Shown here piece by piece: positions 660-23,773 of a stretch of DNA of 64,000 bases (position 1 is the first letter of the stretch; every line of letters starts with the position of its first letter). Origin of the DNA: Pseudomonadota bacterium (GTDB lineage Archaea > Thermoplasmatota > SW-10-69-26 > JACQPN01 > JAJPHT01); the NCBI GenBank assembly GCA_021325135.1, contig JAJPHT010000051.1, positions 1 to 64,000 of the forward strand. Reading direction: 5' to 3'. The notes under the pieces were generated by a model. The model searched no databases, was not told the DNA's origin, and worked only from the letters and a program-made list of their open reading frames with translations. The position numbers and the translations under genes were made by a program.

Positions 660-672
660 TTGGACCAAGCCC
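660..672 (+). promoter_or_regulatory. Element-specific motif TTGGACCAAGCCC (28 nt before ATG 688)
   Basis: One of 9-11 copies at near-constant spacing to a start codon. Confidence 0.7.
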
Positions 673-687
673 CGCCTTAGAACACTC

Positions 688-765
688 ATGTCGCACAGCA
701 AAGCTCTGAATCTCAGTCCTTCCCGCACATTCGTCACGGCGTCCAGCCCAGAGGTGTCTGAATGA
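688..765 (+). CDS. Putative 25-aa leader peptide MSHSKALNLSPSRTFVTASSPEVSE
   Basis: ATG is 28 nt after the motif. Its stop overlaps the next ATG (ATGA 762-765), and it contains a GAGGTG SD for the next gene. Confidence 0.4.
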   Translation: MSHSKALNLSPSRTFVTASSPEVSE

Positions 766-1316
766 TTGCACAAGAGCCCATCGTCTTGACGCTGATCGGC
801 AAGACCCATGCCTTGGACGACGAGGGCGGAGTCTATGCCGGAACCCACGTCACAATCCACCTGACGCACGCATGGGCGGACGCGCTTCTCGACACCATGC
901 GTCGCTGCGCGAGCCTTGCCACGTGGCCTCTCCTGGCGAAGAACGCGCACGCCGCCCGCCTCCACGACATCCGCATCTGGAATCCCATCAGACTCCAGCC
1001 CTGGACGTGCGACGAGGAGGCCGATTGGGACGCCGCGACACGGCCAGCGTTCGAGGGCCTCGACCTCCTCGGCCAAGCGTGGAGCGCGGAGACCGACGCC
1101 TGGTTCCTTCTGCCCGGTGAGGTGCCCATCCTCGAAGACGCTGCCTCGCGCGACGAATTCGCTTACGCGAGCGAGCTGGAATTCCTCCACGTGAGCCCCG
1201 AGGACGCTGCGTGGCGCTTCAACGTGAAGCATACGAGCGTCGTGATCCAGACTCCCGACCTCACGCTGCGCACTCTCGAAGACGCCCTTAGGCGCCTCGA
1301 TCCATCCAGCCCCTAG
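762..1316 (+). CDS. Hypothetical protein
   Basis: 184-aa ORF with a GAGGTG SD and acidic, protein-like composition. Confidence 0.7.
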   Translation: MIAQEPIVLTLIGKTHALDDEGGVYAGTHVTIHLTHAWADALLDTMRRCASLATWPLLAKNAHAARLHDIRIWNPIRLQPWTCDEEADWDAATRPAFEGLDLLGQAWSAETDAWFLLPGEVPILEDAASRDEFAYASELEFLHVSPEDAAWRFNVKHTSVVIQTPDLTLRTLEDALRRLDPSSP

Positions 1317-1390
1317 GCACTCCTGGACACCAAACCGCAGACGGGGCCGAACGTTCGTCCGCACGATCGCGCCTCATCCTCGCGCCCCCC

Positions 1391-1403
1391 TTGGACCAAG
1401 CCC
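1391..1403 (+). promoter_or_regulatory. Element-specific motif TTGGACCAAGCCC (27 nt before ATG 1418)
   Basis: Exact match to the copies at 660 and 4137. Confidence 0.7.
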
Positions 1404-1417
1404 ACAGCCTTGAAGCC

Positions 1418-2176
1418 ATGTTGAAACTCCATTCACCGAGCGCAAGCAAGCGAACCTCCGCGTTGTCTGCGAAGCAGAAACCGCGACCGAAATCATGGCT
1501 GACCCTCGGCAACGCCAAAGTTGGTGCGTGGACACCCACGTTCAATCTCCTGCCTGGCGATCCCGCGGAGGTGGCGGGGGGGACGTGCCCAGGCGCGTCT
1601 GCCTGGTGCGGCCAAAGATGTTACGCCCGTAGAGGCCGCCAAGCCTGGCCCAGTGTACGCAACCGCTACGCCTCCAACTTCCAACGCATCCAAGAGGAAG
1701 GTCTCGATGCCTTTGTCAAGGGCGTCGTCGCGGAGATTCGCGGACGGGCGGTTGGCATCGTCCGCCTTCACGCCGCGGGAGACTTCTTCGGCGAGGCGTA
1801 CGCGGACGCTTGGGTGCGCATTGTGCGGGCCTGCCCGCACACGCGCTTCTGGGCGTACACGCGCTCGTACCGCGTCCCCGCTCTCCTCCCCCATTTGGAA
1901 CGCCTACACGCGCTGCCCAACATGCAGCTCTTCGCCAGCATCGATCCCAGTATGCCGATCGTGAACCCCGATGCGCAAGACCTGGCGGCTCGCTACGGCG
2001 CGCCCCTCGGCTGGCGCGTCGCCTTGCTGACCACCCAGATCGAGCCGGGCACGAGCCCCCTGGTCTGCCCCCAGCAGGTCGGGAAGATGCCATCCTGCGC
2101 CGCCTGCCAGTTCTGCTTCTCCCGCACACCCGGCGAGAGCGAGACGCAAGGCCACGTCGCCTTCATCCCCCACTGA
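1418..2176 (+). CDS. GP88-family (phage gene product 88-like) Cys-rich Fe-S / radical-SAM-like protein
   Basis: Motifs GNAK, TCPGASAWCGQRCYA, VRLHAAGDF and FWAYTRS, plus a C-terminal CPQQ...CAACQFC, as in GP88-type phage proteins. Confidence 0.7.
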   Translation: MLKLHSPSASKRTSALSAKQKPRPKSWLTLGNAKVGAWTPTFNLLPGDPAEVAGGTCPGASAWCGQRCYARRGRQAWPSVRNRYASNFQRIQEEGLDAFVKGVVAEIRGRAVGIVRLHAAGDFFGEAYADAWVRIVRACPHTRFWAYTRSYRVPALLPHLERLHALPNMQLFASIDPSMPIVNPDAQDLAARYGAPLGWRVALLTTQIEPGTSPLVCPQQVGKMPSCAACQFCFSRTPGESETQGHVAFIPH

Positions 2177-2185
2177 ACAACGCCC
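2173..2185 (+). promoter_or_regulatory. Element-specific motif variant CTGAACAACGCCC (27 nt before ATG 2200)
   Basis: Same spacing as the other copies; overlaps the upstream TGA stop. Confidence 0.55.
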
Positions 2186-2199
2186 TTCAGCTTCTTCTC

Positions 2200-3261
2200 A
2201 TGCCACAGACGACCCTGGAGAGCTACGCCTCTCCTCCAAAACGCAATCTCCGCCCAGAACCAAGGCTGACCGTCTTGAGTTTCGGAGCAGGTCAGGACTC
2301 CACCGCGATGCTCTACCTCTACCGCTACGACGATGCCTGGCGCGCCCGCTGGGCACCACGGGACTTCCTCGTCGTGTTCAGCGACACCGGAGACGAGCAC
2401 CCCGAGACGTACGCCCACATCGAGCGCACGCGCGCCTGGTGCGCCAAGGAGAACATCGCGTTCGAGACCATCACGAAAGACCGAGGGTATCACGCACCCT
2501 CCTGGAGGGACCTCATCACTCACTACCGCGAGTACGAGACGGTCCAAGTCCACGGCTTCTCCGGCGCGTGCACGCAGCAGCTCAAGATCGCGCCCATCTA
2601 CAAGTTTCTCGACGACTGGATCGGCCAGACCTACGGGTATCCCAGCGGCCAGAAGCGGGCCATCCACGCCTTCGGCCGGGAGCATGGGAAGATCCGCGTC
2701 CTCTTGGGCATGGCCGCCAAGGAGACAAAGCGCGTCCCTTACGAGAAGCGGAAGCCCGAACACCAGACGCTCGCCCTCACGCGGGGCCGGGCCAAGAAAC
2801 CCCTCACCCCGCAGGAGCGCGCCGCGCGAAACAACCCGAGCCTGTGGGGCTACTGGATCGACCAGTGCTTCCCGCTCTACGAGGAGGATATCGACCGCGC
2901 GGGCGCCCAGGCCATCATCAAGCGGTACGGCTGCGAGGTTCCCCCTCCTTCGAACTGCATGCGCTGCCACTACCAGAGTCCCATCGAACTGGTCTGGCTC
3001 TGGCGCTTCCATCCCGACAAGTTCCACGAATGGGAGCAGCTTGAGGAGGCGAAGATCCAGCGCGATGCCGCGGGCCGCCCCGACCGCGAGGGCGGGCTGC
3101 GCGTCATCCCACTCGCGGAGTTCCATGGCGTGTACGGCCACAAGCGATTGCGCGAACGACTCAACGAAGCCCTCGCGCAGCACGGCCACATGACCGACGC
3201 GGAGCTTCACGAGTACAAAATGAGCCACGGCCATTGCACCATGACCAACTGGGGCGGATGA
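2200..3261 (+). CDS. PAPS reductase-like / PP-loop (adenine nucleotide alpha-hydrolase) protein
   Basis: LSFGAGQDS PP-loop, FSDTGDEHPETY, CTxxLKIxP, FPL and SNCMRC motifs. Confidence 0.8.
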   Translation: MPQTTLESYASPPKRNLRPEPRLTVLSFGAGQDSTAMLYLYRYDDAWRARWAPRDFLVVFSDTGDEHPETYAHIERTRAWCAKENIAFETITKDRGYHAPSWRDLITHYREYETVQVHGFSGACTQQLKIAPIYKFLDDWIGQTYGYPSGQKRAIHAFGREHGKIRVLLGMAAKETKRVPYEKRKPEHQTLALTRGRAKKPLTPQERAARNNPSLWGYWIDQCFPLYEEDIDRAGAQAIIKRYGCEVPPPSNCMRCHYQSPIELVWLWRFHPDKFHEWEQLEEAKIQRDAAGRPDREGGLRVIPLAEFHGVYGHKRLRERLNEALAQHGHMTDAELHEYKMSHGHCTMTNWGG

Positions 3262-3264
3262 CGC

Positions 3265-4020
3265 CTAACCGCCCGGGGTTGTGGACGTCGGGTCGTCCTG
3301 GTGATGATCATGGCGCCGCGCCTCCTCGGGCGAGGTGCCAAGGAGACGGGACAGATTCTCGTAGAATCCCCGTCCATGGGCGTTCCCGTAGCCTCGGCGC
3401 TTGTGCGAGCGGCTCAGGTGGCTGACTTCGTGCGCCATCAAGCGCGCGGGCTCGGTGACCGGATGCCGCCGCATGAGGTGGTCCACGTAGGAGCGCGACA
3501 CGCAGATGTCTCCCCGATGGTGGACCCAGCGCCTGCGCTTCAAGTGGACCAGTTCGCCCTTGATGCGACGCCAGCCCGGCGCGTAACCGACCGGGTGGGT
3601 GTGCACGTGGGCGCGCACGACTCGCGCGCACGCGCCCGGCGTGCCCGCCCAACGCACGGTCGGACGCACGACGCCAAGCGTCGTCGCGAAAGCTTCGGCC
3701 TCCCGTTGGAGGCGTGCCAAGAGCGCGGCCTCGTCCGCCTCCGCAGTCTCCCTCGTCTGCTCCTCCAACGCTTGGAAAAGCGTGGCAGGCTCGTGCACGG
3801 GTTCAGGCGGGGGCTCGGCGGCGCGGCGTTCCACGACGCGCCGGAGCGCGCGAGCGCTGCGCTCATGCCTCTTCATGAGCGTCGTGAGACGCTTGATCTT
3901 CGTAGCCAACTCTCGAACTTTCGTCTCAGCGAGAGCAAGGCGTTCCTCGGGAGTCTTCTTTGCGGCGCGGCGCTGCTTGGGCGTTGATATCACCGTGAAC
4001 GTAACGCCTTGCGAGGACAT
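3265..4020 (-). CDS. Zincin-like (SprT/YgjP-type) metallopeptidase-domain protein with N-terminal coiled coil
   Basis: LMAHEVSHL followed by HGRGFY (HExxH plus downstream HxxxF). Confidence 0.6.
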   Translation of the reverse strand: MSSQGVTFTVISTPKQRRAAKKTPEERLALAETKVRELATKIKRLTTLMKRHERSARALRRVVERRAAEPPPEPVHEPATLFQALEEQTRETAEADEAALLARLQREAEAFATTLGVVRPTVRWAGTPGACARVVRAHVHTHPVGYAPGWRRIKGELVHLKRRRWVHHRGDICVSRSYVDHLMRRHPVTEPARLMAHEVSHLSRSHKRRGYGNAHGRGFYENLSRLLGTSPEEARRHDHHQDDPTSTTPGG

Positions 4021-4136
4021 CTTTCCGTCGGCACGAGCGCGTTTGAGCGCATCGCAACAGTTGAAGCGATGAACACGCGGCGTGATATCACCAGCGCACG
4101 CTCATCGAACTTGAACTTGTTGTGGACACCTCGCGC

Positions 4137-4149
4137 TTGGACCAAGCCC
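4137..4149 (+). promoter_or_regulatory. Element-specific motif TTGGACCAAGCCC (28 nt before ATG 4165)
   Basis: Exact motif copy; predicts an unannotated Zn-finger ORF. Confidence 0.7.
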
Positions 4150-4164
4150 TTCTGCGTTGCTTGA

Positions 4165-4338
4165 ATGAACGATCCATTTGTCTGCATTCGATGTGGAAAG
4201 CCTGCCTACGGCTTCCCCACCCAGGCGGTGTGCCGCGCATGCCGCGGCGCTCCCCGGTCGCCCCCCCGAGTGCTGCGGCCCGATCCCGACGAGTTCCTCC
4301 CCGACCTCCCTGAAGTCCCGATGCCGGAGGCGACATGA
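4165..4338 (+). CDS. 57-aa CxxC/CxxC zinc-finger microprotein (not in ORF track)
   Basis: MNDPFVCIRCGKPAYGFPTQAVCRACRGAPRSPPRVLRPDPDEFLPDLPEVPMPEAT*. ATG lies 28 nt after the motif, and the stop overlaps the next gene (ATGA). Confidence 0.75.
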   Translation: MNDPFVCIRCGKPAYGFPTQAVCRACRGAPRSPPRVLRPDPDEFLPDLPEVPMPEAT

Positions 4339-4739
4339 GGCCACCCAACCCCATCACGGCCCAGCAGAGCGCGGCCATCGACGATCTTCTCGAGGCCTCC
4401 GACGAAGTCGCACGCCTGCTGGACGTCTCCCTCCCCGACCTCATGCCGGCCATCCGGCGCCGCCTGGAGCGTCGGCCGCGTCTCATCTCACGCGAGGAGT
4501 TCGTCGAGCGCCTGCGCACCAACCGCTCGCTCCACGAGCAGGCCACCGAAACGCTGCGCGACCTGAGCCTCGCCTTCGAGCTGCGTGCGGAGGAGCACGA
4601 GGACGCACTCCTGCGCGCCTTGGGCCACGACACCACGGCGCTGGCCAACCTGCGGGAAGAAGCCCACCAATTCCACGCCGCCCTGGCGCGCAGACGAGCC
4701 GACCTCCGCCTGAGCCCGGTCAGGAGCCCGGAGGGATGA
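4335..4739 (+). CDS. Hypothetical alpha-helical protein
   Basis: 134-aa ORF coupled to its neighbours, with a GGAGG SD upstream. Confidence 0.7.
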   Translation: MRPPNPITAQQSAAIDDLLEASDEVARLLDVSLPDLMPAIRRRLERRPRLISREEFVERLRTNRSLHEQATETLRDLSLAFELRAEEHEDALLRALGHDTTALANLREEAHQFHAALARRRADLRLSPVRSPEG

Positions 4740-4743
4740 GCGC

Positions 4744-5655
4744 GTGGCCCGCCTGCGTCGGCGCCCCTTCATCGTCTACGCCGGCAGCGTCGCCGGCCTC
4801 CACGCCCTCCGGGAGCTCATCAAGTTCCAGATGGGGCGCTTGATCGCCGCCACCGCCTGGAAGAACCCGGAGCCTCGCATTCCGTGGTGCTTCGACAACG
4901 GTGCCTACCACGCCTACAGGAAGGCCCTGCGCACGGGCAAGACACCCGTGTTCCCCGAGCGCGAGTTCACCCAATGCCTCTGGGACGAGACGGTGGGGGT
5001 GGGCAAGATCGAGATGGGCCTCTGGGGCGCCACGTTGCGCAGTGTCAAGAACCCCCGCCGCAAGCCCCTCAACACGGGCTTCGCCTCCTGGCCCGACTTC
5101 GGCGTCTGCCCCGACATCGTCATGGGCGGTCGGGAGAGTCTCCACTTCAGCCTCGGCTGGATCGACCGCCTTCCGCGCCAGATCCCATGGCTCTTCGCGG
5201 CCCAAGACGGCATGAGCCTGCGCGACATCGCCTACGCCTGGGAATATGCCCTGGAACTGGAGTGCCCCTTCTCGGGCATCTTCGTGGGCGGCAGCGACGC
5301 CTTCAAGGACGAGATGACGCCCAGCCTGGTGCGCTTCGTGGCGCGCCGGGCCAACGACTACGAGCCCGATCCCTACTGCCACGTGGGTCGGGTCAGCCGT
5401 GTCGAGCGGATTGCCTGGGCCATACGCGTGGGCGCCACGAGCGTCGACAGCAGCGCCTTCGGCCGCGCCCACACCTACCAGCGGGCCCAAGAAGCACGCA
5501 ACCTCGTCCGCGTCCAACGCCACCTGGCGGACCGCGTCACGTTCGAGGAGGATCTCCTCTCCCAGGAGCCCTCGCCCCGATTCGTGAGCCGCAAGCGGCG
5601 CAGGATTCAGCCGACACGGACCCGTGGAAGAAGCCTCCCAGGAACCCCCAGATGA
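4744..5655 (+). CDS. tRNA-guanine transglycosylase (TGT)/DpdA-like TIM-barrel protein
   Basis: FDNGAY, PDIV, AQDG, IFVGGSxxFK, CHVGRV and SVDSS follow the motif order of phage TGT/DpdA-like proteins (DSG-type, QG-type, HxxG, SxD). Confidence 0.6.
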   Translation: MARLRRRPFIVYAGSVAGLHALRELIKFQMGRLIAATAWKNPEPRIPWCFDNGAYHAYRKALRTGKTPVFPEREFTQCLWDETVGVGKIEMGLWGATLRSVKNPRRKPLNTGFASWPDFGVCPDIVMGGRESLHFSLGWIDRLPRQIPWLFAAQDGMSLRDIAYAWEYALELECPFSGIFVGGSDAFKDEMTPSLVRFVARRANDYEPDPYCHVGRVSRVERIAWAIRVGATSVDSSAFGRAHTYQRAQEARNLVRVQRHLADRVTFEEDLLSQEPSPRFVSRKRRRIQPTRTRGRSLPGTPR

Positions 5656-6089: not shown

Positions 6090-6124
6090 ACTGCGCACCC
6101 CGAGAGCACGTTGGAACCGCCAGT

Positions 6125-6137
6125 CTGAACCAAGTCC
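6125..6137 (+). promoter_or_regulatory. Element-specific motif CTGAACCAAGTCC (27 nt before ATG 6152)
   Basis: Motif copy with one mismatch, same spacing. Confidence 0.65.
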
Positions 6138-8383: not shown

Positions 8384-8396
8384 CTGAACCAAGCCC
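8384..8396 (+). promoter_or_regulatory. Element-specific motif CTGAACCAAGCCC (28 nt before ATG 8412)
   Basis: Identical to the copy at 10983. Confidence 0.7.
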
Positions 8397-10982: not shown

Positions 10983-10995
10983 CTGAACCAAGCCC
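10983..10995 (+). promoter_or_regulatory. Element-specific motif CTGAACCAAGCCC (26 nt before ATG 11009)
   Basis: Exact motif copy. Confidence 0.7.
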
Positions 10996-13127: not shown

Positions 13128-13140
13128 TTGAACAAACCGC
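13128..13140 (+). promoter_or_regulatory. Element-specific motif variant TTGAACAAACCGC (28 nt before ATG 13156)
   Basis: Degenerate copy at the same spacing. Confidence 0.55.
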
Positions 13141-13384: not shown

Positions 13385-13397
13385 TTGGACAAAGCCC
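13385..13397 (+). promoter_or_regulatory. Element-specific motif TTGGACAAAGCCC (26 nt before ATG 13411)
   Basis: Motif copy; suggests the true start is 13411 rather than 13399. Confidence 0.65.
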
Positions 13398-13410: not shown

Positions 13411-15513
13411 ATGACACGACAATCACGAGCCAGTCCCGAACGTCACAAGAAGATCGAGCGCGACTCCGAGCGTGCCCTCGAGGTCATGCGCCTGATCGCC
13501 CAGATTGAGACGAACAACCACAACGTCCCGTACGCGGGCATCCACGGCGCAGCGGCCGTGCCCTGCAGCACGTGCTACGCCCTGCCCCCGCATCCGTGCC
13601 TTCGCCCCAGCGGGCACGTCACGCGAGCGGGCTTCGGCGCCTTCCACGCCGCCCGACGTGCGTTGGCCGAACGCGTCAGCCTCGTGGGCCTGATCTGCCA
13701 GGATTGCAGCACCCCCGACGGGCCAGCCCACGACGACGAGGACGTCGGGCACTACGTTGCCGCCGTGGCCGACAGCGAAGAGAACCACAAGGCCGACCTC
13801 CCCATCGGGCGCCTGCTGTGCGGCCCCTGTTTCGCCAAGCGCGTCGGCACGGACCCACTCCCCCTGAAGCCCAAGCGAACCACGAAGAAGCACCTGAAAG
13901 ACCCGCAGCATCCCCCCAAGACAGACAAGCCGGCCGCCGAAGCGCCCTTCGAGACCGAGGGCTGGGTGCTCCTGGAGCACACCGTCACCATGGATGACGG
14001 ACGCACCTCGACGACACGCTTCTTCGTCAAGAAGGACCGGCCCCCCAAGACCGGGAGACCCATCCCATTGCCCGCGGACAGCGCCGTCGTCTGGACTCCT
14101 GCGGGGCCCGAACTGCGCGCAGCTCTACGACGCGGGCCCAGAGGGCGCCAGGCGCTCGCCCCGCTCCCGCATGAGCAGGCGTTGCCGCGCCTAGGGGGTC
14201 CGCATGACGCCCTCCGCGATGTGGAACTGTTCGGCCTCGACTCCGGACGACCCGAGAATGACGAGGCCGAAGCAAGGGCGCGCCGCACCTTCCTCGCTGA
14301 GGCCCACGCGGAGCGTTCCGACGCAGAGGCAGAGTTCGCTCGGTTGGCCGCCCAAGCATCCCTCATCGGAAAGCCGCTAGCGCAACCGACGACGACATCG
14401 AAACACTCGGACGGAGAGGCCGAGGGTCAGGTTCTCGTCATGGTGCGCGAAGCAGCGGAGCGCCACTTCCTCGTCTTCCGCGCCATCTTCGGGGAGCGCC
14501 GCGTCCGGAAATCTGGTCCTCCCTTCGCGTGGGGCAATCGGAGCCTTCTCGAAACGATCCTTCCTGCCTGCCTCGCGTTCGCGCGGGTCCACGGCGCGGC
14601 GCGCTTCCGCGTCGTGACCCCCGACGGGATGGGTCGCGAGTACGCCATCAAGGGCACCGAGGAGGCCACGCGCCTGAAGCCGATCGCGACGGGCCGGCGG
14701 CTCATGTACACGCGGCCTCCAACCGAGGCCGAATGCCAAGAGGCCGTCGAACTCGCCTTGGAGGTCGCCTGCTGCGTCTGCGCGGCCCCGCCCCACGTGA
14801 CTTGCAAGGGCGGCAAGCTACACGCGCCCCGCTTCGAGGCTGGCTGCCCGCCCTGTGTCGGATGGAATGGCCAACTCACACAGGCGCGAGGCACCCAGCC
14901 CGACAGCCCCACGGTCGCGAAGCCGGAGACCGCGACGTGCGCCACATGCGGACGCGACGACCTACGACAACGGACGAACGGCAACCTCGTCGCGCACGAC
15001 ACGCCGACAGGCGCACGTTGCGATGGCCAGCGGGCCCTGGGTGAGGATACCGCCCGCCGACACCTCTTGGCCCGCACCACGATGGAGGCCTACGCCGCCC
15101 GGCGCGATGCCCTCCTGAGCATCGCGCCGACTCCCGACCAGTGGGAGCCGCGCCAAGTCGAACTCCGGGAGGAGATCCAGCGCTGGATCAGCCTGGGCTT
15201 CCGCATCGGCACCGAGCCCTTCGAACGCTTCTGCCCGGACTGCCACGCTCCGCCATTCCTGTTGTGCATCGACAACGGCAAGCCGTGGGATGCCCCCGGC
15301 CTGAGCCCAACCCAGACCCACGCGGCCCGCCGTGCCGGTCCCACAGTCCAGGCCAGTGCCTCTACCCCACCGGCCCTGGCTAGTACCCCCAAGCCACAGA
15401 TCCCGGCATCAACTCAGCCTGCGGAGCCTCGACCGGCCTCACTGGAAGGATGGAAGCCCACCATCCAGGCGCGCCTGACCCGGTGGGTCGCCGACAGCCC
15501 AGCGACCCCGTAG
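13411..15513 (+). CDS. Large multi-zinc-finger protein
   Basis: Three CxxCxAxP...C...HxxR modules (CSTCYALP, CCVCAAPP, CPDCHAPP), plus CQDC...CGPC and CATC...H...C. Confidence 0.75.
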   Translation: MTRQSRASPERHKKIERDSERALEVMRLIAQIETNNHNVPYAGIHGAAAVPCSTCYALPPHPCLRPSGHVTRAGFGAFHAARRALAERVSLVGLICQDCSTPDGPAHDDEDVGHYVAAVADSEENHKADLPIGRLLCGPCFAKRVGTDPLPLKPKRTTKKHLKDPQHPPKTDKPAAEAPFETEGWVLLEHTVTMDDGRTSTTRFFVKKDRPPKTGRPIPLPADSAVVWTPAGPELRAALRRGPRGRQALAPLPHEQALPRLGGPHDALRDVELFGLDSGRPENDEAEARARRTFLAEAHAERSDAEAEFARLAAQASLIGKPLAQPTTTSKHSDGEAEGQVLVMVREAAERHFLVFRAIFGERRVRKSGPPFAWGNRSLLETILPACLAFARVHGAARFRVVTPDGMGREYAIKGTEEATRLKPIATGRRLMYTRPPTEAECQEAVELALEVACCVCAAPPHVTCKGGKLHAPRFEAGCPPCVGWNGQLTQARGTQPDSPTVAKPETATCATCGRDDLRQRTNGNLVAHDTPTGARCDGQRALGEDTARRHLLARTTMEAYAARRDALLSIAPTPDQWEPRQVELREEIQRWISLGFRIGTEPFERFCPDCHAPPFLLCIDNGKPWDAPGLSPTQTHAARRAGPTVQASASTPPALASTPKPQIPASTQPAEPRPASLEGWKPTIQARLTRWVADSPATP

Positions 15514-15598
15514 ACGCTCTGCGCGTCTTGACGAAGCGCGCCAAGGAGAAGTCTCCTGGACGTGACGCCCATCGGCATGCGGTCCATGCGGTCGGGGA

Positions 15599-15871
15599 CT
15601 ACTTCGCCAGGAGCCTGATCGCGCGCTCCAAAGCCAGCATCGCGGCGCACGTGGCGGCCTCGGCGCGCTTCGTGGGCTCCGCGAGGTCCATACTCGCGCG
15701 CTCGGCGTCCTGGATGGCGAAGACGGCGTGCCTGACGGCCTCCGTGGCGGCCTCCAAGGCGTCAGAGCGGTTGGCGGCCAACGCCTCGCGGGAGAGGGCG
15801 CCGGCCTTCTCCACGATGGCCTCTGCCTCCGTCAAGCGCGTGCGCGCGAGGTCCCGCGGTGAGGCGGCCAC
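15599..15871 (-). CDS. Small Ala-rich helical hypothetical protein (start uncertain)
   Basis: The C-terminal ~90 aa of ORF 15599..16870 is protein-like (VAASPRDLARTRLTEAEAIVEKA...). The rest of that ORF is antisense to a real gene. Confidence 0.45.
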   Translation of the reverse strand: MAASPRDLARTRLTEAEAIVEKAGALSREALAANRSDALEAATEAVRHAVFAIQDAERASMDLAEPTKRAEAATCAAMLALERAIRLLAK

Positions 15872-16234
15872 GGGCGGGCCAGCCGGGACGCAAGGGATGA
15901 GGTTTGGCGGGCTGCACGCCCTCGGGTGCGGCCACCATCTTGCGGCAAGCAGGAGGTTCGCCCCTCCCGAGAAGAAGGCCGACGGGCTGGGGGCCGGGCT
16001 CGCCCTCGGATGTCTCGCCTCGTTGGCCCTGGTCATGCGCTCCCGCCGGGAGCCATAGCGGGCCATCAGGGGAGGCCCAAGGCCGGCGAGGCTGTTGGCA
16101 CGCGGAGGCGATCCTCCAGCTCGCGCGGCGCCAAGCATCACCCGCCCATGTATTGCAGAAGCGCTTTCAACCCGGATAGTGTGCCCGCCCCCGTGGGCCC
16201 TGCTCGCTCCAAGCCGCTCCGGCAAGGAAGCGGC

Positions 16235-16858
16235 GTGGTGGCACTCGTGCGCCCGAGGATCAAGCGCATCGTCAGGGAAATCTACGAACTTCGAATCACC
16301 TTGGGGGGTATCGACCCGCCCGTGTGGCGGTTGGTTCACGTGCCGGCCGACGCCACGCTCCATCAACTCCACGATCTCATCCAAGCGATCATGCCCTGGA
16401 ACGGCGCGCACCTCTACGAGTTCTGGGCCCGCGACCAACGCATTGGCCTGCCCGACGAGGAAGCCGAGGACAACGAGGACGTCTTGGACTCGCGAGAAGT
16501 CCGACTCCTCGACTTGGGCCTGCGCCGAAGATCTTGGTTCATCTACGTCTGGGACTTCGGGGATGATTGGCGTCACACGATCCAGCTCGTAAACCGATTC
16601 CCGGCCGAGTCGGACGCCACCTACCCGTATTGCGTGGACGGGGGACGAGCTGCTCCACCCGACGACTGCGGAGGCCCAAGCGGCTACTTGCACATGCTCT
16701 CGGCCCTTCGCGACCCCGCGCATGCGGAACACGAGAGTTGGAAAACGTGGGTCGGGGACTCGTTCGATCCCGAAGCCTTCGACGTGGACATCGCGAACCA
16801 TGATCTTCGAGTCCTTTCTCGGTCCTGGCGAGGGCCACAGCGGAAAAGCCCTCGTTGA
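16235..16858 (+). CDS. Plasmid pRiA4b ORF-3 family protein
   Basis: YELRITL..PPVWR..LHQLHDLIQ..W..HLYEF..YVWDFGDDWRH..PPDDCGG signature. Confidence 0.9.
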   Translation: MVALVRPRIKRIVREIYELRITLGGIDPPVWRLVHVPADATLHQLHDLIQAIMPWNGAHLYEFWARDQRIGLPDEEAEDNEDVLDSREVRLLDLGLRRRSWFIYVWDFGDDWRHTIQLVNRFPAESDATYPYCVDGGRAAPPDDCGGPSGYLHMLSALRDPAHAEHESWKTWVGDSFDPEAFDVDIANHDLRVLSRSWRGPQRKSPR

Positions 16859-16997
16859 ACCTTGATGCATCGAAGTCGCTCCATCAGGGGGCCGTTCCTA
16901 CTATGCCGGCAGGGCGGTGTCCACCAAGGCCGTCGAGCCAAACTGAGTGTGGATGGTTCCACCAAAGGTCGATGCACGTGCTCTACGCTCCACGCCC

Positions 16998-17849
16998 GTG
17001 AGACTCCTCCTCCGCGCTCTGATCCTTCTCGCCCTGCTTTCTCCCCTCCTCATGCCCTCCTTGGGAGAGGCGCAAGGCGTCCCGTCCAATCTCGACCCCA
17101 CGCAGGGGCCCCTCATGACCCGCGCGACAGGAGCCTACCCCGCCTTGGACCCCATCGTGATCCCACCCGCATCCCAAGGCGGCTTCACGGTGTTCATTCT
17201 CCTGGCCAGCAACAAGGGAACGGCGGACTTCTCGGGCGATCTTCATGCCCAAATCCCCGAGTTCGGCATCGACGTGCGCGTGCCCTTCCCCATCCCATTG
17301 GGCAGCGTTGAGTTCGAGGTCGTCCCGGTCGACGTGCCCATGGATGCGCCGGATCTTGTGCACGTGCGCCTCGCGTTCGACGAGAACGGCACCGAGGTCG
17401 GGCACGGCGAGGAGCGGACGTTCCAAGTCGTCCCCGCCAACACGGACCCCTGCCAAGGCGCCGTCGGCATCGTGAGAAGCTCGGGAGCCAAGGCGGCCCT
17501 CGTGGGCGACGCCGCGCGATACGCCTACGTCGCCTGTAACGGTTCAAACACCACGCAGACGTTCGACGTCTCCTTCCACGACGCAACCACCCAGCGACCC
17601 CTCTGGACTCACGAGGAGGCCATCGCCTTCTTCGCCAACGCCACGAACGGCGCCATCGTGACTGACACGGTCGATCCCTACCATTTCACGCTCCCGCCCC
17701 ACGGGATTGAGTCATTCCTGTTCTCGATTGACGACGCGCCCCCGCCCAGCCAAATCAAGCCAATCGCAGAGCTTCGGATTAACAACGGGACGCCGAGTCA
17801 ACAATCAGGACTTGACCCGGTCACATTCGCTCCTCCCGCGTTCGGTTGA
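16998..17849 (+). CDS. Secreted beta-rich (Ig-like) protein
   Basis: Signal peptide RLLLRALILLALLSPLLMPSLGEAQ; several NxT sequons. Confidence 0.65.
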   Translation: MRLLLRALILLALLSPLLMPSLGEAQGVPSNLDPTQGPLMTRATGAYPALDPIVIPPASQGGFTVFILLASNKGTADFSGDLHAQIPEFGIDVRVPFPIPLGSVEFEVVPVDVPMDAPDLVHVRLAFDENGTEVGHGEERTFQVVPANTDPCQGAVGIVRSSGAKAALVGDAARYAYVACNGSNTTQTFDVSFHDATTQRPLWTHEEAIAFFANATNGAIVTDTVDPYHFTLPPHGIESFLFSIDDAPPPSQIKPIAELRINNGTPSQQSGLDPVTFAPPAFG

Positions 17850-18149
17850 ATCGGGACGTGTCCGTCCCCGAGGCAAGCTCCCAATTGTTGACGCGACCCG
17901 CGACCCCAGCGGGTAGCTGGGCCCGTGGCTGTGTTTCGTCGGACCCGACCGCCTCTGCATGAAGGATTGGAGGGTTGCCGCGCGGCTTTGGGGAAGCTTC
18001 TCTCGCGGCAACCCGTAACGCCCGCGCTTTCGCGGCGCGGGCCATGGGGCAAAGAATGCAGCATGCTTAACCGCCCCATCACGAGCCGTGATGAATTGCA
18101 AACCAACCTCCAAAGAATGGGCCGCCGGCGGCCCATCCCACGATGCTCC

Positions 18150-18389
18150 TCAGGGGAGTTCGATTCTCATGATGTTTGACCCGCTCACGGGTTGGAAGCC
18201 GCACTTGGCGTAGAATGCTCGCTGGCGTTCAAGGTCAGCGGCATAGCCGCCCGGTTCCACGAGAACCACGGCAGGGCCTTGCCGCCGGATGGCTTCCAGG
18301 AGCCGCTTGACCATGCGCTCCCCAAGGCCTCGGCCTCGCTGGGCCGGATCGCGGACGACGACCCGAGTGACGTACCACTCCAAGCCCAC
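18150..18389 (-). CDS. GNAT-family acetyltransferase (short; 5' end possibly disrupted)
   Basis: QRGRGLG acetyl-CoA motif A and FYAKCGF motif B. The frame is open ~30 codons further upstream without a start codon. Confidence 0.7.
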   Translation of the reverse strand: MGLEWYVTRVVVRDPAQRGRGLGERMVKRLLEAIRRQGPAVVLVEPGGYAADLERQRAFYAKCGFQPVSGSNIMRIELP

Positions 18390-18686
18390 GCGCGAGGCCT
18401 GAGCCGTCGCGATCGGAACGCCGGGACGACCGAGATGAACTGAGGATGCTCCATGACTGCCAACTCGGGGCTGGCTTCTCCCGCGGCCTCAGTCGGCGCG
18501 GATCCATCGATCACGACGCTTCACCCAAAACGAGAATCATAAACGTTCCCAGAAGAATCCCAAGAAGAGTGGGGTGCTCGACCCACGAACGCCCCTGCTT
18601 TCCCATGGCTCTGCGAAGGGACTACTTTCGTCCCGCCCACCAGAACCTTTGCTTCGTCTAAATGACTATTCCGGGGCAATTCGGAT

Positions 18687-19604
18687 GTGGTGGCCGTGGA
18701 CGCGCGGTCGAGTGTTGCCCAACTTCTCGCGCAAGGGGAGCAGTTGGAGCGGGACGTCGCCGGCTTGATGAAGCCGCGGGACCGGAAGGTGGTGGGGCAG
18801 TTCGGCCGTGCCGCGGCCCGTGAACTGAGCTTGCCACCCCTCGCGCAAACCGTTTCGGGACTCTTTTTTGACGGCAAGCTCAAGGAGCGACAGGCCGAAC
18901 TCGAGGCTCGCTGCAACGCGCTCTACACCCAAGCTCGTTCCGTCTTGGGGCAGGTCTCGGTCTACAAGCCATCGATCAAGATCGGCGGCAACAGCGCTGA
19001 GCTCGTACGTCAACTCGCCAAGGCGAACGATGGCGTCAAGCTCCTAACTCGAATCCGGAACCTGAATCGCGTGCTGCGCCGCCTTTCTGAGGCGGATCTC
19101 GTCTACAACGCCCACATCCCGGCGCGGATCAAGGAGGAGCAAATCCGAACGTGGCACGAGGAACGCGAACGTCGGGCATTGCGCTACGTGGACCTCTCCG
19201 ACTTGCCACCCGGCTTCGTCTCGATCAAGTTCCCCAACCGCGAAGCCCTCCTGAGCCGATTGGGCGGATACCCCGCCGTGCGGGAGATCATGGAGGGCGC
19301 CATCCACGCCGCCTCCGGGGATGCCCCTGATGGCCGCCAACAAGCGCTCGGCTCCTGCCGACGCGCTTTGGAAGCCCTGGGGCGCGAACTGACGGGAAAA
19401 GGCGACTGGCGCGAGATTGTCCTCCGCGTCGCCGACCCCGACGTTGGCGCCTTGCTACGCAAGCTCTACTCACTCCTTAGCGCAAAGGGCGCCCACGGAG
19501 GCAAACGCGCCTCCGAAGCGGATGTCGAACTAGGCATGCAACAGACCTTCGGAGCTCTCTTCTGGATGATCGAACACCGCACCAGCTTGGGGAGCAGAAG
19601 ATAG
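18687..19604 (+). CDS. Hypothetical protein with C-terminal Abi/HEPN-like helical domain
   Basis: ALGSCRRALEAL ... LYSLLSAKGAHG resembles abortive-infection C-terminal/HEPN domains. Confidence 0.5.
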   Translation: MVAVDARSSVAQLLAQGEQLERDVAGLMKPRDRKVVGQFGRAAARELSLPPLAQTVSGLFFDGKLKERQAELEARCNALYTQARSVLGQVSVYKPSIKIGGNSAELVRQLAKANDGVKLLTRIRNLNRVLRRLSEADLVYNAHIPARIKEEQIRTWHEERERRALRYVDLSDLPPGFVSIKFPNREALLSRLGGYPAVREIMEGAIHAASGDAPDGRQQALGSCRRALEALGRELTGKGDWREIVLRVADPDVGALLRKLYSLLSAKGAHGGKRASEADVELGMQQTFGALFWMIEHRTSLGSRR

Positions 19605-19717
19605 GTTCCCAGCACGCGTCGCATGGGATGACCACCATCCAAGCCCCTCAAAATGAGTCAATGACCCGAGCCTGGAACGGCGGTTCCTTCATCAGGGTCT
19701 TGCGGGTTTCGGCGGGC

Positions 19718-20965
19718 ATGTCATCCACAAGTCCTCGGTTGTGGGTCGTGACGATCCGTGCGACGTCCTCGATTCGGCTCAAGGACGATACCATCCTCTA
19801 CGTGCAGGCGGGCCCCGATTCGTCGCTGCCCGTCCGCGGCGTACGCTTGCGGAACTGGCGTAGCGAGGGTCAGGATGGAGCGATGGGACTCTTGGCCCAG
19901 GCCGCGGGCGAGTATGCCAGTGCCGAGGCCGCCGTCGCCACGCTGGCCAATCTGGCCTCGCCCTACCTTCAATTGGCGGCCATCGCGGCCAACGCGACGA
20001 TCAGCGAACCATTCGAGGTGATGGCCTCCGCCCCACCTCGAATGCCGACTGACACAGGCACCTTCGTCGTGGAGCGCCCCATCCAGCCCCAGTGGTCGCC
20101 GTGGGTAAGGCGGGAGCTTGACGCGAACGCCCTCAAGGAGTTCAGCCAAGCCGTCGAAGCCCACCCCCGCAAGGACCGGCTCCACCGAGCGATGGCCCAC
20201 TACAGCCTCGCCCTGGACAAGCTCGATCCAGGGAACTGGATCATGGCCGCGGAGCACCTCTACATGGCCGTGGAAAACCTCGGCCGCGTCGTCCACCAAC
20301 GCCTGCTCCAAGCCGGCGGGCTACCCGACACGGGCGAAAGCAAACACAAGCTCGCCATCGCCCACGGCTTCCAACCCGCGAACGAGAAGGACCGCTCCCA
20401 CCTCAATCGGTATGACGCCTGGGTCCGTGAAACTCACGTCTTTGGTGGCGACCGCGACTGCTACAAGAAGCTCCTCGACGCCAGCGACAAGCTCGAACAC
20501 GGCCTCTCCGGTTTCGATGAAATCCGCGGCCACGCCGACCAGGCCACCCTGAAAGCCTACGGCTACGTACGGCGCGCCATCCTCCGCGAGGCTGGCGTCC
20601 CCAAATCCTCGGAACTCTTCGCCAAGCGCCTGGACCTCCCCCTGGGACCGCTGCGGCCGATCATGGTTCTCGAAGGCACGTACACCGACACCTCGACGAC
20701 GCCCGAGCCCAACCCAGACCCTATCCAGGAGCCTTGGCCCATCTTCGATGGGCTCCAGCTCGCCGTGGAGATCGACCAAGTGACAGACGGTAAGGAGGAT
20801 GCGCGCCACGTCCAGCTCAAAGTGAACGGAGACGGCAGCCCCTTGAGCCCGGCGCAGACCGTCCACAGCCTCAAGCACACGCTCCTCTACCAGCATCCTG
20901 AAAAGGGAACGGTCACGATCCCAGTGTCGCCCACCGAAATCACCGTCCATGAACGTGCGCCGTGA
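19718..20965 (+). CDS. Hypothetical protein with ApeA/MauJ-like HEPN-type region (start uncertain, 19628-19718)
   Basis: RAMAHYSLAL...HLYMAVENL...ASDKLEHG fits the HEPN layout, but with a degenerate Rx4-6H. Confidence 0.5.
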   Translation: MSSTSPRLWVVTIRATSSIRLKDDTILYVQAGPDSSLPVRGVRLRNWRSEGQDGAMGLLAQAAGEYASAEAAVATLANLASPYLQLAAIAANATISEPFEVMASAPPRMPTDTGTFVVERPIQPQWSPWVRRELDANALKEFSQAVEAHPRKDRLHRAMAHYSLALDKLDPGNWIMAAEHLYMAVENLGRVVHQRLLQAGGLPDTGESKHKLAIAHGFQPANEKDRSHLNRYDAWVRETHVFGGDRDCYKKLLDASDKLEHGLSGFDEIRGHADQATLKAYGYVRRAILREAGVPKSSELFAKRLDLPLGPLRPIMVLEGTYTDTSTTPEPNPDPIQEPWPIFDGLQLAVEIDQVTDGKEDARHVQLKVNGDGSPLSPAQTVHSLKHTLLYQHPEKGTVTIPVSPTEITVHERAP

Positions 20966-20982
20966 AGCGTTCCAGCCGCGGG

Positions 20983-21792
20983 TTATCTCGGCTTGGGGCT
21001 TTCTGTGGGGTCGAGCTGCATTGTGGAGACGCTGAGGAAGCGGCCCTGGGGCGGCGTCCAGACGGCGCGGACCCACTCCGGAACATCCGCGTGGCGGCCC
21101 GCAAGGCTCGCGCGCGCTTGTCGGCCGGCAGCGTAGGCGACGAAGTCGGCCACTTCGACGCCAGGCTCGGCGAGCTTGCTGGGCGAGAAGAACTTCTCGG
21201 TCGGGATGGGGTGCAGCCCAGTATCGTTCTGGATGGCGAAGTGATAGGTTCCAAAGACGCGGCTGTATCTGGCGCGCAGCCGGTCGGTGGCCTCGAAGAT
21301 CATGAACGCGCGGGCGTACGATGTCGTGGGAATCGCCTCGGCGATCTTTGGCATGAGCGCCAGCGCGAAGGAGGCCATGAGCTCGTCGTTCCCGCGCAAG
21401 TCGCTTGAGGCCTCGACAAGCTGCTGGCCTGGATGCGTTGTGGCGTGGGTGAAGCCGCGGCCAACGCGGTTGAAATCACTGTGCAGGAAGAAGTCACGGA
21501 TCGGGTCGAGGAGATCGCGTGGGGCGCCGTTGAGGTCCTTGGCGTGCAGGTGCGTGTCAGCCCTGCCGAAGTGTTCCTCCTTCATGCGGCGCCACGGCCC
21601 ACGGATGAGAGCGAGGTAGTTGGCCACGGTGGTGACGACCGCGCCCATGCAGAAAACGGGCGATCCATCGCCAGAGGCCGTGGGAACCTCGTGGCCGCTC
21701 TCGTCGAGGAAGACCACGACATCAGAAGGGTCTGGTTGGACGGATTCCTGCCCGATGTTCAGGGTCCAAGTCCAACCTCCCGAAGCAGGCAC
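20983..21792 (-). CDS. DUF3800-family (RNase H-like fold) protein
   Basis: VFLDESG, F.MGAVV, LHAKDL and GVEVADFVAY motifs. GTG start lies ~29 nt from TATATA. Confidence 0.75.
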   Translation of the reverse strand: MPASGGWTWTLNIGQESVQPDPSDVVVFLDESGHEVPTASGDGSPVFCMGAVVTTVANYLALIRGPWRRMKEEHFGRADTHLHAKDLNGAPRDLLDPIRDFFLHSDFNRVGRGFTHATTHPGQQLVEASSDLRGNDELMASFALALMPKIAEAIPTTSYARAFMIFEATDRLRARYSRVFGTYHFAIQNDTGLHPIPTEKFFSPSKLAEPGVEVADFVAYAAGRQARASLAGRHADVPEWVRAVWTPPQGRFLSVSTMQLDPTESPKPR

Positions 21793-21815
21793 ACGACGCG
21801 ACAGAATCGCCGGGC

Positions 21816-21821
21816 TATATA
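21816..21821. promoter_or_regulatory. TATA box (TATATA) between divergent DUF3800 and DUF4917 genes
   Basis: Palindromic AT-rich hexamer in a 78-bp divergent spacer. Confidence 0.55.
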
Positions 21822-21870
21822 TGGCCTCGTTAGTGCGGGATCGTGGCGAGTCCTGAGGGGGCCTGAATCT

Positions 21871-23013
21871 GTGGCGGTCCACGTCCTCGACTACCTCAAA
21901 GAAGTCCTGCCCACAGGGCCCAAGGCCCCGTGGCCCACGGAAGGGGGACGCATTCTCCTCTTGGGGAACGGCTTCAGCATCGACCGCGACTCGGCGTTCC
22001 ACTACGACTCACTCTGGAACGTTGCCAGCGCAGCCGGCGCCCTTTCTCCCCGCGCGAAGGACTTGGCGGCCAAGCTGGGCACGACGAACTTCGAGACGGT
22101 CCTCGCCGCGCTCGAAACCCAACGCGGCCGCGACAAAGACATCGACGAGGACATCCAAGGCGTCCGGCTGGCTCTCATCACCGCGCTCAAGAAAATCCAC
22201 CTGGAACCCCATGTCGCTTTCAGTGAGCACGAGATCGCCTCGTGCGCCTTCTTCCTGGGCCAATTCAAGGAAGTCTTCACCACCAACTACGATCTCCTCC
22301 TCTACTGGATCTCCAACAAGAAGCACAAGCTCCTGGGCACCGGCGAGGAAGGCGCCTTGATCCAGTTGTTCAAGGACGGCTTCTGCCTCGAGGGGCAAGT
22401 CCCTGACGCTCTCGCCTTCGCACGCAGCGTCATGCTCCACCCCAAGGAGGGCACGCCCCAGCGCGGCTTCCACTTCCTGCATGGCGCCCTGCATCTGCTC
22501 CAGCAGGACGGTGTGGCGTGGAAGCGTCGCGTCCGCACCGCCGAATTGATGGGCCACAAGTTCAAGCTCGACTACCTGCGCCGCGACATCGTCGCGGCCA
22601 TCGAGAGGGGTCACCTGCCCCTCTTCGTCTCGGAGGGCGACAGCCAACGCAAGCTGGGACGCATCCGCGCCAACAATTACCTCCGCTTCTGCTACGACCG
22701 GCTCCAAAAAGGCGTCACTGGTGATCTTGTGACGTTCGGCTTCTCCTTCTCCGCGCAGGACGATCACATCCTCGAAGCCATCGCCAGAAACGCAGCCATC
22801 CGGCGCATCTTCGTGGGCGCCCGTCTCTACGAAGCTCAACCCAAGGAGGACCTGGTCAAACGCGTCGAACACCTGCGCGCCCGGCGCGAGGCCATCGCGA
22901 CCACGGCGCTGCTCCCGTACGAGCCGCTCGATGTCCTTTACTATGACGCGAGCACCGCATGCCCGTGGAACTCGCCTCTGGGGAAGGGCGATCACCCGCA
23001 TTGGAAGAAGTAG
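21871..23013 (+). CDS. DUF4917-family SIR2-like protein
   Basis: LLLGNGFS, FTTNYDLLLYW, FLHGALHL, PLFVSEG..K, YLRFCY and FGFSF..DDHI motifs. Confidence 0.85.
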   Translation: MAVHVLDYLKEVLPTGPKAPWPTEGGRILLLGNGFSIDRDSAFHYDSLWNVASAAGALSPRAKDLAAKLGTTNFETVLAALETQRGRDKDIDEDIQGVRLALITALKKIHLEPHVAFSEHEIASCAFFLGQFKEVFTTNYDLLLYWISNKKHKLLGTGEEGALIQLFKDGFCLEGQVPDALAFARSVMLHPKEGTPQRGFHFLHGALHLLQQDGVAWKRRVRTAELMGHKFKLDYLRRDIVAAIERGHLPLFVSEGDSQRKLGRIRANNYLRFCYDRLQKGVTGDLVTFGFSFSAQDDHILEAIARNAAIRRIFVGARLYEAQPKEDLVKRVEHLRARREAIATTALLPYEPLDVLYYDASTACPWNSPLGKGDHPHWKK

Positions 23014-23117
23014 TCGCTCGCGGGAATCATACGTTTCCTTCCGCAGGATGGGCCTCCGGTTGCACGGTGCCCATCAAGCCCTTCTCCGCGACGCATCGAA
23101 GGTGGGACCGACTGCGT

Positions 23118-23324
23118 TCACGGGCTCGCAAGTTCGTGCTTTGCCCGCCGGGGGTCATGGATGGCACGCACGACGTCCATCAGGCGCAGCCACTTGCCGC
23201 AAGAGGGGCAGGCCGTGCCGCCAGCGCGGGTCACGCTAATGAGGTGAACGCCGTGCGAGGCGGCGCAGATGGGGCAAACGAAAGGCACGAGCACGATGGC
23301 CTTGGACTCCGGAATACGACCCAC
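23118..23324 (-). CDS. Zn-ribbon microprotein
   Basis: CPIC...CPSCG. Confidence 0.6.
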   Translation of the reverse strand: MGRIPESKAIVLVPFVCPICAASHGVHLISVTRAGGTACPSCGKWLRLMDVVRAIHDPRRAKHELASP

Positions 23325-23563
23325 CCCCGTGGGGGCCTAACAAGCAAGAACTTGGTCATAAACGCTCTTGCGCCCATGCCGCCCAGGGCAGGCCAGCCCG
23401 CCAGTCCCTCTCTCAGGATGGCTCGTAGAAACCGTACCTAATCCGGCTGGCCGAACGCCTGGCGCAACGCGACCCATATGAACCCGACGCGGGTTTCATG
23501 CGAACTTCTAAGGCCCGGCTCGCCCACGGTTGCTCCGAGGGCACCCCGCGCGCCCTCCAGTCC

Positions 23564-23576
23564 CTGAACAAAGCCA
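23564..23576 (+). promoter_or_regulatory. Element-specific motif variant CTGAACAAAGCCA
   Basis: 31 nt before ATG 23595 (18-aa ORF). A more degenerate copy, CTGCCCAAAGCCC at 23745, is 29 nt before ATG 23774. Confidence 0.45.
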
Positions 23577-23773
23577 TGCATCCAAGGGACTCCCATGCAA
23601 ACCGACAACCACGCCAAGTCTGCCTCCAGCACGCTGGAGGCGATGATCTGAACTTCTGGCCCCTCGCGTGGGCCAGCCTCCTGCTGGCTCTCACCCTCAA
23701 GTTCCGGCTCGTGCAACGCCTCACCGCGTCGATCCGCCGAGCACCTGCCCAAAGCCCTGCACCCACGTCACCC

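Follow-up and report, generated by a model that had tools for sequence, protein, structure and literature searches.

A GC-rich word at leaderless-promoter distance is private to an integrated archaeal element and may define a promoter class of its own

The DNA considered here, referred to throughout as the window, is the 64,000-nt stretch at positions 1 to 64,000 of contig JAJPHT010000051.1 (C29 in our numbering) of a 3.77 Mb genome of 72% GC in 51 contigs, and its first 26,200 positions form part of a low-GC integrated element of ~183 kb. This element carries a word of consensus YTGRAC[C/G/A]AAG[C/T/A]CC that lies at −27 to −15 relative to the ATG of many of its single or first genes, all of them pointing one way. 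We consider it likely that the word acts in DNA as a promoter element for leaderless units, in which case it would be the upstream core-promoter element of ~45 to 50 short units arranged in one co-directional block of ~70 kb with genes for DNA modification, anti-restriction, and repair.

Distribution of the word and its tie to first cistrons

To score the word, we used a position weight matrix (PWM) and counted as a site any match of ≥15 bits with an ATG 24 to 29 nt after the word's T that opens a reading frame (ORF) of ≥20 codons. There are 39 such sites on one strand of the element vs a single one in the remaining 3.59 Mb of the genome, both strands included, and at ≥12 bits with a correctly spaced ATG the count is 44, all on one strand of the element. 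Iterated refinement of the PWM drifted to a codon pattern, CTGGACGAGGCC (Leu-Asp-Glu-Ala), and was discarded in favor of a fixed core combined with ATG spacing. The coding strands of the element hold 61 matches to the core pattern, 35 of which have an ATG 25 to 27 nt after the T, as compared with 9 of 301 matches elsewhere in the genome. Genome-wide, the word is confined to the plus strand of C29 and to the minus strand of a second contig, C46, between 56 and 11 kb, where copies whose sixth base is G (TGGACGAAG) are as frequent as those with C. A stringent version of the pattern, with 16 matches here, has at most two per genome in ~400 different Thermoplasmatota genomes, which were covered by two overlapping searches of mostly the same genomes (100 relatives and 400 drawn from the phylum), and the word is absent from all 34 related loci, which are metagenomic contigs with homologous blocks. 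The privacy of the word to the element, as claimed in the earlier note, is therefore upheld both by the scoring of the host and by the ~400 genomes, and no copy in the window stands before a host gene or before the cargo genes at 14 to 26 kb.

The element was delimited by GC content, by facing open frames, and by the continuation of the word-bearing block on the minus strand of C46. Positions 1 to 26 kb of the window have a GC fraction of 0.65 to 0.68 vs 0.72 for the host, and C46:1-157 kb is likewise low, so that the element continues leftwards from the window into C46:1-157000, read as reverse complement; the size of ~183 kb refers to both contig parts joined. An opposite-strand ORF that starts at C29:552 and is open at position 1 of that contig faces a 1,725-codon frame open at position 1 of C46, and because these frames face each other across the contig ends, the two contigs are probably neighbors, broken inside one giant gene. 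When joined, window positions 1-552 (minus strand) and C46:1-5178 (plus strand) would make one opposite-strand gene of at least 1,900 codons that interrupts the block and probably accounts for the assembly break. Direct repeats of >15 nt between the two ends of the element were not found.

The ATGs placed behind the word are true start codons, since 86% of them open ≥100 codons, vs 44% of all ATGs on the same strand, and since the N-terminus of one 588-residue product (C46:37803-39569, minus strand) aligns with the N-termini of nine homologues. Genes with the word are separated from the gene upstream by 53.5 nt in the median (minimum 36), and 14% of them have a Shine–Dalgarno-like sequence. 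The remaining genes of the block on the same strand follow their upstream neighbor at a median distance of 2 nt, often overlapping it by 4 nt, carry a Shine–Dalgarno-like sequence in 62% of cases, and start with GTG or TTG besides ATG. The usual archaeal pattern is a promoter followed by a leaderless first cistron and then by ribosome-binding sites for the later cistrons. The contrast in gap and Shine–Dalgarno content therefore shows that the word marks first cistrons, as expected of a promoter, and it is the strongest argument that sequence offers for this role. One practical consequence is that the word marks gene starts: it fixes ~45 start codons and reveals small ORFs missed by gene callers, as in the case of a zinc-finger gene that the earlier note had predicted from the word, which proves to be a 57-aa ORF at 4165-4338 with the CxxC...CxxC pattern of a zinc ribbon.

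Anatomy of the word-bearing promoters

The genome is archaeal and Thermoplasmatota-like, with one TBP gene (on C33) and three TFB genes (on C47, C19, and C12), and a search for sigma-70 region 2, positive in ten bacterial control genomes, finds none in it. For comparison, we collected the upstream regions of 2,689 host genes, which had been identified by their codon usage. The A+T content of these regions has maxima at −34/−33, at −29 to −26, and at −10, with a preference for C at −1; the refined host matrix reads AA-S-S-Y-T-Y-A-W-G from −35, with AA at −34/−33, corresponding to the TFB recognition element (BRE), and T-Y-A-W-G at −29 to −25. The box is realized as TTTT, TCAAG, TTAT, or TTAA, with TCAAG about as common in this position as TTAT (at −30 to −28) or TTTT, and AAGCC and GAAGCC rank high among the frequent words of host promoters. 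Host genes scoring >6 bits amount to 31% at the canonical place vs 3.5% at a control place, a pattern which points to host genes that are mostly leaderless and preceded by a degenerate BRE/TATA. The TTAA/TTAT boxes that the earlier note had seen ahead of host genes at a spacing similar to that of the word fit this picture, as TTAT, TTAA, TTTT, or TCAAG stands ~29 nt before the start, and the three examples it gave agree.

The word ends 13 to 15 nt before the ATG, and its T falls at −25, −26, and −27 in 12, 13, and 10 of the 39 sites, respectively, a spread of ±1 nt like that of host boxes. The suggestion that it occupies the TATA position is right in that it sits roughly where the host TATA does; its T, however, is ~3 nt closer to the ATG. 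Nine positions of the word (T, G, A, C, A, A, G, C, and C) hardly vary, and its flanks are unconserved apart from a C-rich upstream side (40 to 60% C at −36 to −28). Since only these 12 to 13 positions are conserved and the flanks are not, selection acts on the word itself, as opposed to its having been carried along in recently duplicated cassettes. As the earlier note had stated, the word is not AT-rich, and it continues to −15 past its T-G-R-A-C part at −26 to −22; a canonical AT-rich TATA box in the host register is thus not what it provides. Positions −36 to −28 of the word-bearing promoters show no enrichment in A, in contrast to the AA at −34/−33 of host genes, and a host-type BRE/TATA at the canonical place is found in 8% of genes with the word vs 31% of host genes, which supports the view that the word replaces such a box rather than adding to one.

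Downstream of the word, C occupies −1 in 81% of these genes, as compared with 73% of host genes behind a BRE/TATA, and the start codon supplies the A at +1, so that the promoters bear the pyrimidine (−1)/purine (+1) signature expected of a leaderless start, as judged from sequence. The stretch from −13 to −2 is 49% A+T vs 22% in host BRE/TATA promoters, and no upstream promoter signal is seen at −60 to −41. The word holds ~18 bits in invariant G/C and A positions and is nonpalindromic, features that fit base-specific reading better than the shape reading of TBP.

Other ways of placing a start or a box on these sequences can be set aside. The evidence on start codons rules out a start that lies 15 nt within a coding region. 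Taking the CAAG of the word as a host TCAAG box puts that box 7 nt too close, such that the transcript would begin inside a coding region whose true start is the ATG. To take TGGAC/TTGAAC for a sigma-54 or −35-like element fails on a genome that has no sigma-70 domain and on an ATG spacing that fits neither type.

How the word may be read

Under the reading that we prefer, transcription would be carried out most likely by the host RNA polymerase, starting most likely at or beside the A of the ATG. A dedicated factor, which the element itself probably encodes and which its sequence does not give away, would recognize the bases of the 12-bp site at −27 to −15 specifically and recruit or replace TBP/TFB, and the unusually AT-rich stretch at −13 to −2 would ease opening of the DNA. 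On whether a sequence-specific factor of this kind acts together with the host polymerase, our judgment is evenly balanced; we prefer this reading over its rivals because the site is invariant, GC-rich, nonpalindromic, 3 nt off the host register, devoid of a BRE, and unused by host genes. If true, it would represent a new way of recruiting an archaeal RNA polymerase and a natural orthogonal expression switch.

The earlier note had supposed that a TBP/TFB-like factor or an RNA polymerase of the element's own was probably encoded beyond the window. The rest of the element, on C46, was searched accordingly, and neither was found: Pfam gives no TBP, TFB cyclin repeat, TFB zinc ribbon, Rpb1, or Rpb2 domain on the element, with Rpb1 and Rpb2 domains present only on C40, which is host DNA; the Pfam model of T7-type polymerases has no match on the element, nor in any control genome, and is therefore uninformative; and a phmmer search of the element, translated in six frames, with the TBP and TFBs of the host as queries returns nothing below E = 0.7. 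All three host TFBs recur, in the same number, in five relatives that have no word, and thus no host TFB is special to this genome. The element's only recognizable DNA-binding regulators are two paralogous tandem winged-helix proteins (HVO_0163/ArsR-like; C46:89196-89705 and C46:103447-104001, plus strand) from a family with 66 matches in the host; it is speculation that a single chain with two winged-helix domains could read an asymmetric 12-bp site. An 855-aa protein encoded behind the strongest host-type promoter of the element was considered as the factor and rejected, as it is an Ig-like/CARDB surface protein, and Atlas look-ups of the 249-aa antisense protein and of the 700-aa protein described below gave no usable lead.

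Several observations weigh against a dedicated factor. A Pfam search of 68 proteins taken singly and a Pfam/PHROGs search of 98 more reveal no transcription machinery besides the winged-helix pair, and no candidate reader emerges from Pfam, PHROGs, phmmer, and Atlas over ~165 element proteins beyond that pair and small zinc ribbons. The TATA-like boxes of the host are already degenerate, and YTGRAC lies only 2 to 4 nt downstream of the host register, such that direct reading by TBP/TFB is possible. Furthermore, AAGNCC and the T-rich stretch that follows resemble the host AA-SS-YTYAWG shifted by 15 nt; at this offset 6 of 37 word-bearing genes exceed 6 bits, a count that follows in part trivially from the letters AAGCC.

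The foremost alternative, which we regard as somewhat unlikely, is that host TBP/TFB and RNA polymerase read the word directly, as an unusually strong or otherwise unusual variant of the TATA region that has spread within the element with no dedicated factor. Host boxes tolerate GC, as the frequency of TCAAG indicates; YTGRAC agrees with four of the six host positions Y-T-x-A-W-x; AAGCC and GAAGCC are common in host promoters; other genes of the element carry host-type boxes; and a factor gene was searched for on the element and not found. Archaeal viruses are moreover reported to depend on the host RNA polymerase (PMC5569661), and viral early genes to share virus-specific consensus promoters built around a host-type BRE/TATA (PMC11065993). 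Here, however, the T of the word stands at −26 ± 1 vs −29 in the host, where ~3% of boxes come as close as −27; the A-rich BRE is missing from a −35 to −28 region that is C-rich; and the ~18 bits of the word are far above the information in the host box. A strong site for the general factors would also be expected before highly expressed host genes, as in SIRV2 (PMC11065993), yet essentially no gene among the 2,689 host upstream regions or in the whole host genome uses the word. If direct reading by TBP/TFB were nonetheless true, it would redefine what is meant by a TATA box in high-GC archaea.

A more radical extension, in which ~50 units depend on a private promoter with neither TATA nor BRE and the element supplies its own initiation factor, or even its own polymerase, with no sequence relationship to TBP, TFB, or known RNA polymerases, we judge to be unlikely; initiation would then be orthogonal in a domain whose known transcription, that of viruses included, always begins through TBP/TFB on TATA-type boxes.

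We find it quite improbable that the word acts in RNA, as an element-private signal for translation start or RNA processing within long read-through RNAs, in the manner of the start-associated sequences of Cluster K mycobacteriophages. Read-through itself is likely, because intergenic gaps as short as 36 nt leave no room for terminators, and a signal of this kind would also suit the near mutual exclusion of the word and Shine–Dalgarno-like sequences, the AT-rich stretch before the ATG as an unstructured landing site for ribosomes, and the fixed words known ahead of many phage genes. The end of the word is nevertheless too far from the ATG, at 13 to 15 nt, for a contact of the Shine–Dalgarno type, and its complementarity to the 16S rRNA of a relative of the same genus (3′ end GGATCACCTCCT; the assembly itself has no 16S gene) is at the chance level, with 41 matches found vs 35.6 expected, all with three mismatches. 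The word further coincides with the promoter position of host leaderless genes, C(−1)/A(+1) is a start-site signature, and the −60 to −41 region shows no upstream promoter signal.

It is very unlikely that a global repressor uses the word as its operator to keep the block silent for as long as the element is integrated, with some other sequence as the true core promoter. Archaeal repressors commonly sit at sites between about −27 and −15, a range that suits the location of the word. The element encodes the two winged-helix proteins, and repressors are proposed to bind the regulatory sequences that individual viruses have around their early promoters (PMC11065993). Against this, no other core promoter is visible, a host-type box being present in only 8% of the genes concerned, and the word is nonpalindromic in most copies. 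Least probable of all is a fully orthogonal system in which the element encodes an RNA polymerase unrelated to known ones and the word serves as its promoter: a private, highly conserved, nonpalindromic word unlike host boxes, an AT-rich opening region unlike host promoters, and the many element proteins, several of them large, that belong to no recognizable family would be in keeping with it, but no multisubunit domain was found on the element (the T7-type model matching nothing, controls included), the ±1-nt spread in spacing and C(−1)/A(+1) match those of the host polymerase, the large family-less proteins examined look like surface proteins, and archaeal viruses are reported to bring regulators and to lack RNA polymerase genes (PMC5569661).

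Consensus promoters private to one element are already known; what is new here is that the canonical box is replaced and that no factor gene is recognizable. To our knowledge, every archaeal promoter studied, viral ones included, has been described as a TATA-type box plus BRE read by TBP plus TFB. Regulons of alternative TFBs and TBPs, such as the TBP/TFB families of Halobacterium and TFB3 of the Sulfolobales, have a recognizable TFB or TBP paralogue beside the regulon. The element resembles these in having a dedicated class of promoters, whose genes could be turned on together as one block, much as with a bacterial alternative sigma factor; it differs in that no TFB/TBP paralogue was found on the element and that the host TFBs are common to relatives without the word. 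Cluster K mycobacteriophages reportedly carry a 13-nt start-associated sequence, constant in its spacing to over a dozen genes, which is said to lie directly before the start codon and to include the ribosome-binding site. The likeness lies in a word of ~13 nt at a fixed distance before many genes of one mobile element; the word described here, in contrast, ends 13 to 15 nt upstream, has no Shine–Dalgarno sequence inside, and stands at leaderless-promoter distance.

Viruses of the Sulfolobales (SIRV2, SIFV2, SMV2, and SSVs) have virus-specific consensus regulatory sequences before early and anti-defense genes (PMC11065993). As in those viruses (PMC11065993), many small, poorly conserved genes of one element share an element-specific upstream sequence, the genes are probably early or anti-defense genes (here including C5, N6/N4, and Eco57I-type methyltransferases and Mom-like and ParB-like proteins), and the motif varies from element to element. 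The Sulfolobales consensus, however, is a strong canonical BRE plus TATA that is also found before highly expressed host genes (PMC11065993), whereas the word is GC-rich, comes without a host-type BRE/TATA, and is unused by host genes. Halovirus HF2 likewise has repeated intergenic sequences before many genes, private to a virus genus, and these were shown to be promoters by reporter assay (PMC8707807); they are 29 to 58 bp long with AT-rich TATA-like motifs (PMC8707807), as compared with the 12 to 13 bp of a putative promoter that is not AT-rich. In gene content, the block recalls the anti-defense leading regions of conjugative plasmids, which are long and co-directional and hold orphan methyltransferases, ParB-like proteins, DUF3560, a ligase, and small proteins of no assigned function (PMC11541004). 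Those regions are reported in bacteria to use single-strand hairpin promoters and genes led by Shine–Dalgarno sequences (PMC11541004), unlike the short, duplex-type word and leaderless ATG of each unit here.

Copies in the window and gene content of the element

The window holds six copies of the exact 13-mer YTGRACMAAGCCC, all on the plus strand between 660 and 13385, where none is expected (100 shuffles). The earlier note had listed eleven copies, all on the plus strand; nine of these stand, with the strand and with distances from Y to ATG of 26 to 28 nt correctly given, and the two called looser are doubtful. The copy at 660-672 (20.5 bits) is followed by an ATG at 688 that opens a 25-codon ORF and then by a Shine–Dalgarno-led gene at 762-1316, and that at 1391-1403 (21.6 bits) by the ATG at 1418 of a GP88-family protein of 252 aa. 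A variant copy with one mismatch at 2173-2185 (CTGAACAACGCCC, 12.2 bits) precedes the ATG at 2200 of a 353-codon frame, to which the label PAPS reductase was given by sequence inspection; one PHROGs match to PAPS reductase lies somewhere among the set of 98 proteins. The copy at 4137-4149 (21.8 bits) stands before the ATG at 4165 of the 57-aa zinc-ribbon protein, downstream of which come Shine–Dalgarno-led genes at 4335-4739 and 4744-5655. Next are the copies at 6125-6137 (20.4 bits, one mismatch; ATG 6152, 198 aa) and 8384-8396 (21.1 bits; ATG 8412, 190 aa), both before proteins without a Pfam family, and that at 10983-10995 (21.4 bits), before the ATG at 11009 of an N6/N4 DNA methyltransferase of 388 aa. 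A weak copy with two mismatches at 13128-13140 (TTGAACAAACCGC, <9 bits) precedes the ATG at 13156 of a 71-aa cysteine-pair protein with a basic tail, and the last strong copy of the block, at 13385-13397 (20.3 bits), the ATG at 13411 of a 700-aa protein with phage-type zinc-finger domains.

Two further copies are possible: one at 3160-3172 (CTCAACGAAGCCC, 14.7 bits), with an ATG at 3190 that opens 23 codons antisense into the gene at 3265-4020 (minus strand), and a weak one at 5624-5636 (GTGGAAGAAGCCT, 13.6 bits), which lies within the end of the upstream gene and precedes the ATG at 5652 of a 145-aa ORF. The doubtful pair at 23564-23757 was scored by matrix and by ATG context: the copy at 23564 leads at 30 to 31 nt to an 18-codon ORF, and that at 23745 reaches 9.7 bits, with an ATG internal to a longer frame. 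The TTGGACCAAG form of the word (660-672, 1391-1403, and 4137-4149) contains the palindrome TTGG-N-CCAA, and the 4137 copy also scores on the minus strand; since the commoner forms CTGAACCAAG and CTGGACGAAG are nonpalindromic, symmetry does not appear to be part of the signal. Tiny ORFs of 21 to 25 codons behind strong copies (688-765, 3190-3261, and C46:17772 downwards) precede Shine–Dalgarno-led genes and may be leader peptides or antisense transcript. On the minus strand of C46, strong copies of up to 21 bits at 13750, 26700, and 31635 have no ATG at the usual distance, the first of them sharing its intergenic region with a further copy 110 nt downstream, and these may represent tandem promoters or starts of noncoding RNAs. 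Another strong copy, at C46:19083 (minus strand), is followed at 25 nt by a TTG that heads a 413-aa methyltransferase-like gene (17817-19058), which would, if correct, be a leaderless TTG start.

Recognizable families in the block include C5, N6/N4, and Eco57I-type DNA methyltransferases, an XPG/FEN-type nuclease, an ATP-dependent DNA ligase, DUF3560, GP88, PAPS-reductase-like and Mom-like proteins, zinc ribbons, and several ParB-like proteins, and most block proteins have no recognizable family. The word also flags a likely early or anti-defense gene set in an uncultured lineage. The cargo and partition part of the element in the window (14000-26200), with DUF3800, DUF4917, and ParB genes, is free of the word and has several host-type BRE/TATA boxes, ahead of starts at 15871 (minus), 16998 (plus), 18514 (minus), and 25868 (minus), and the surface-protein modules on C46 are free of the word as well. 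Within the block, an antisense gene at 12314-13063 (minus strand), for which no protein family was found, has a host-type BRE/TATA (GAAGGATTATGGCC, 36 nt before its ATG), which shows that the element uses host promoters too. With the rest of the element free of the word and several genes there behind host-type boxes, the element has two promoter classes. Two antisense proteins of ~250 aa are not paralogues.

The 588-aa protein has a GHKL-ATPase-like N-terminal motif (ELFQN...DDGxGC) and no Pfam family, HATPase_c_3 being found only in its most distant homologue. No homologue occurs in 100 related genomes, and scans of viral contigs with this protein and the 700-aa protein gave no relatives; homologues with 36 to 44% identity are instead found in anti-restriction-like blocks of many metagenomic elements. 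These loci are co-directional blocks with GP88, methyltransferases, ligase, DUF3560, SSB, RadC, and a bacterial-type sliding clamp, and the genes of such homologous blocks carry strong Shine–Dalgarno sequences. On two of the contigs (L015 and L014), nearly every gene has an almost identical extended Shine–Dalgarno context (AACTGGAGGACAGC or TAGGAGGA) 6 to 8 nt before the ATG, conserved far beyond the needs of a ribosome-binding site, and this context may be an element-private translation signal in bacterial-like elements.

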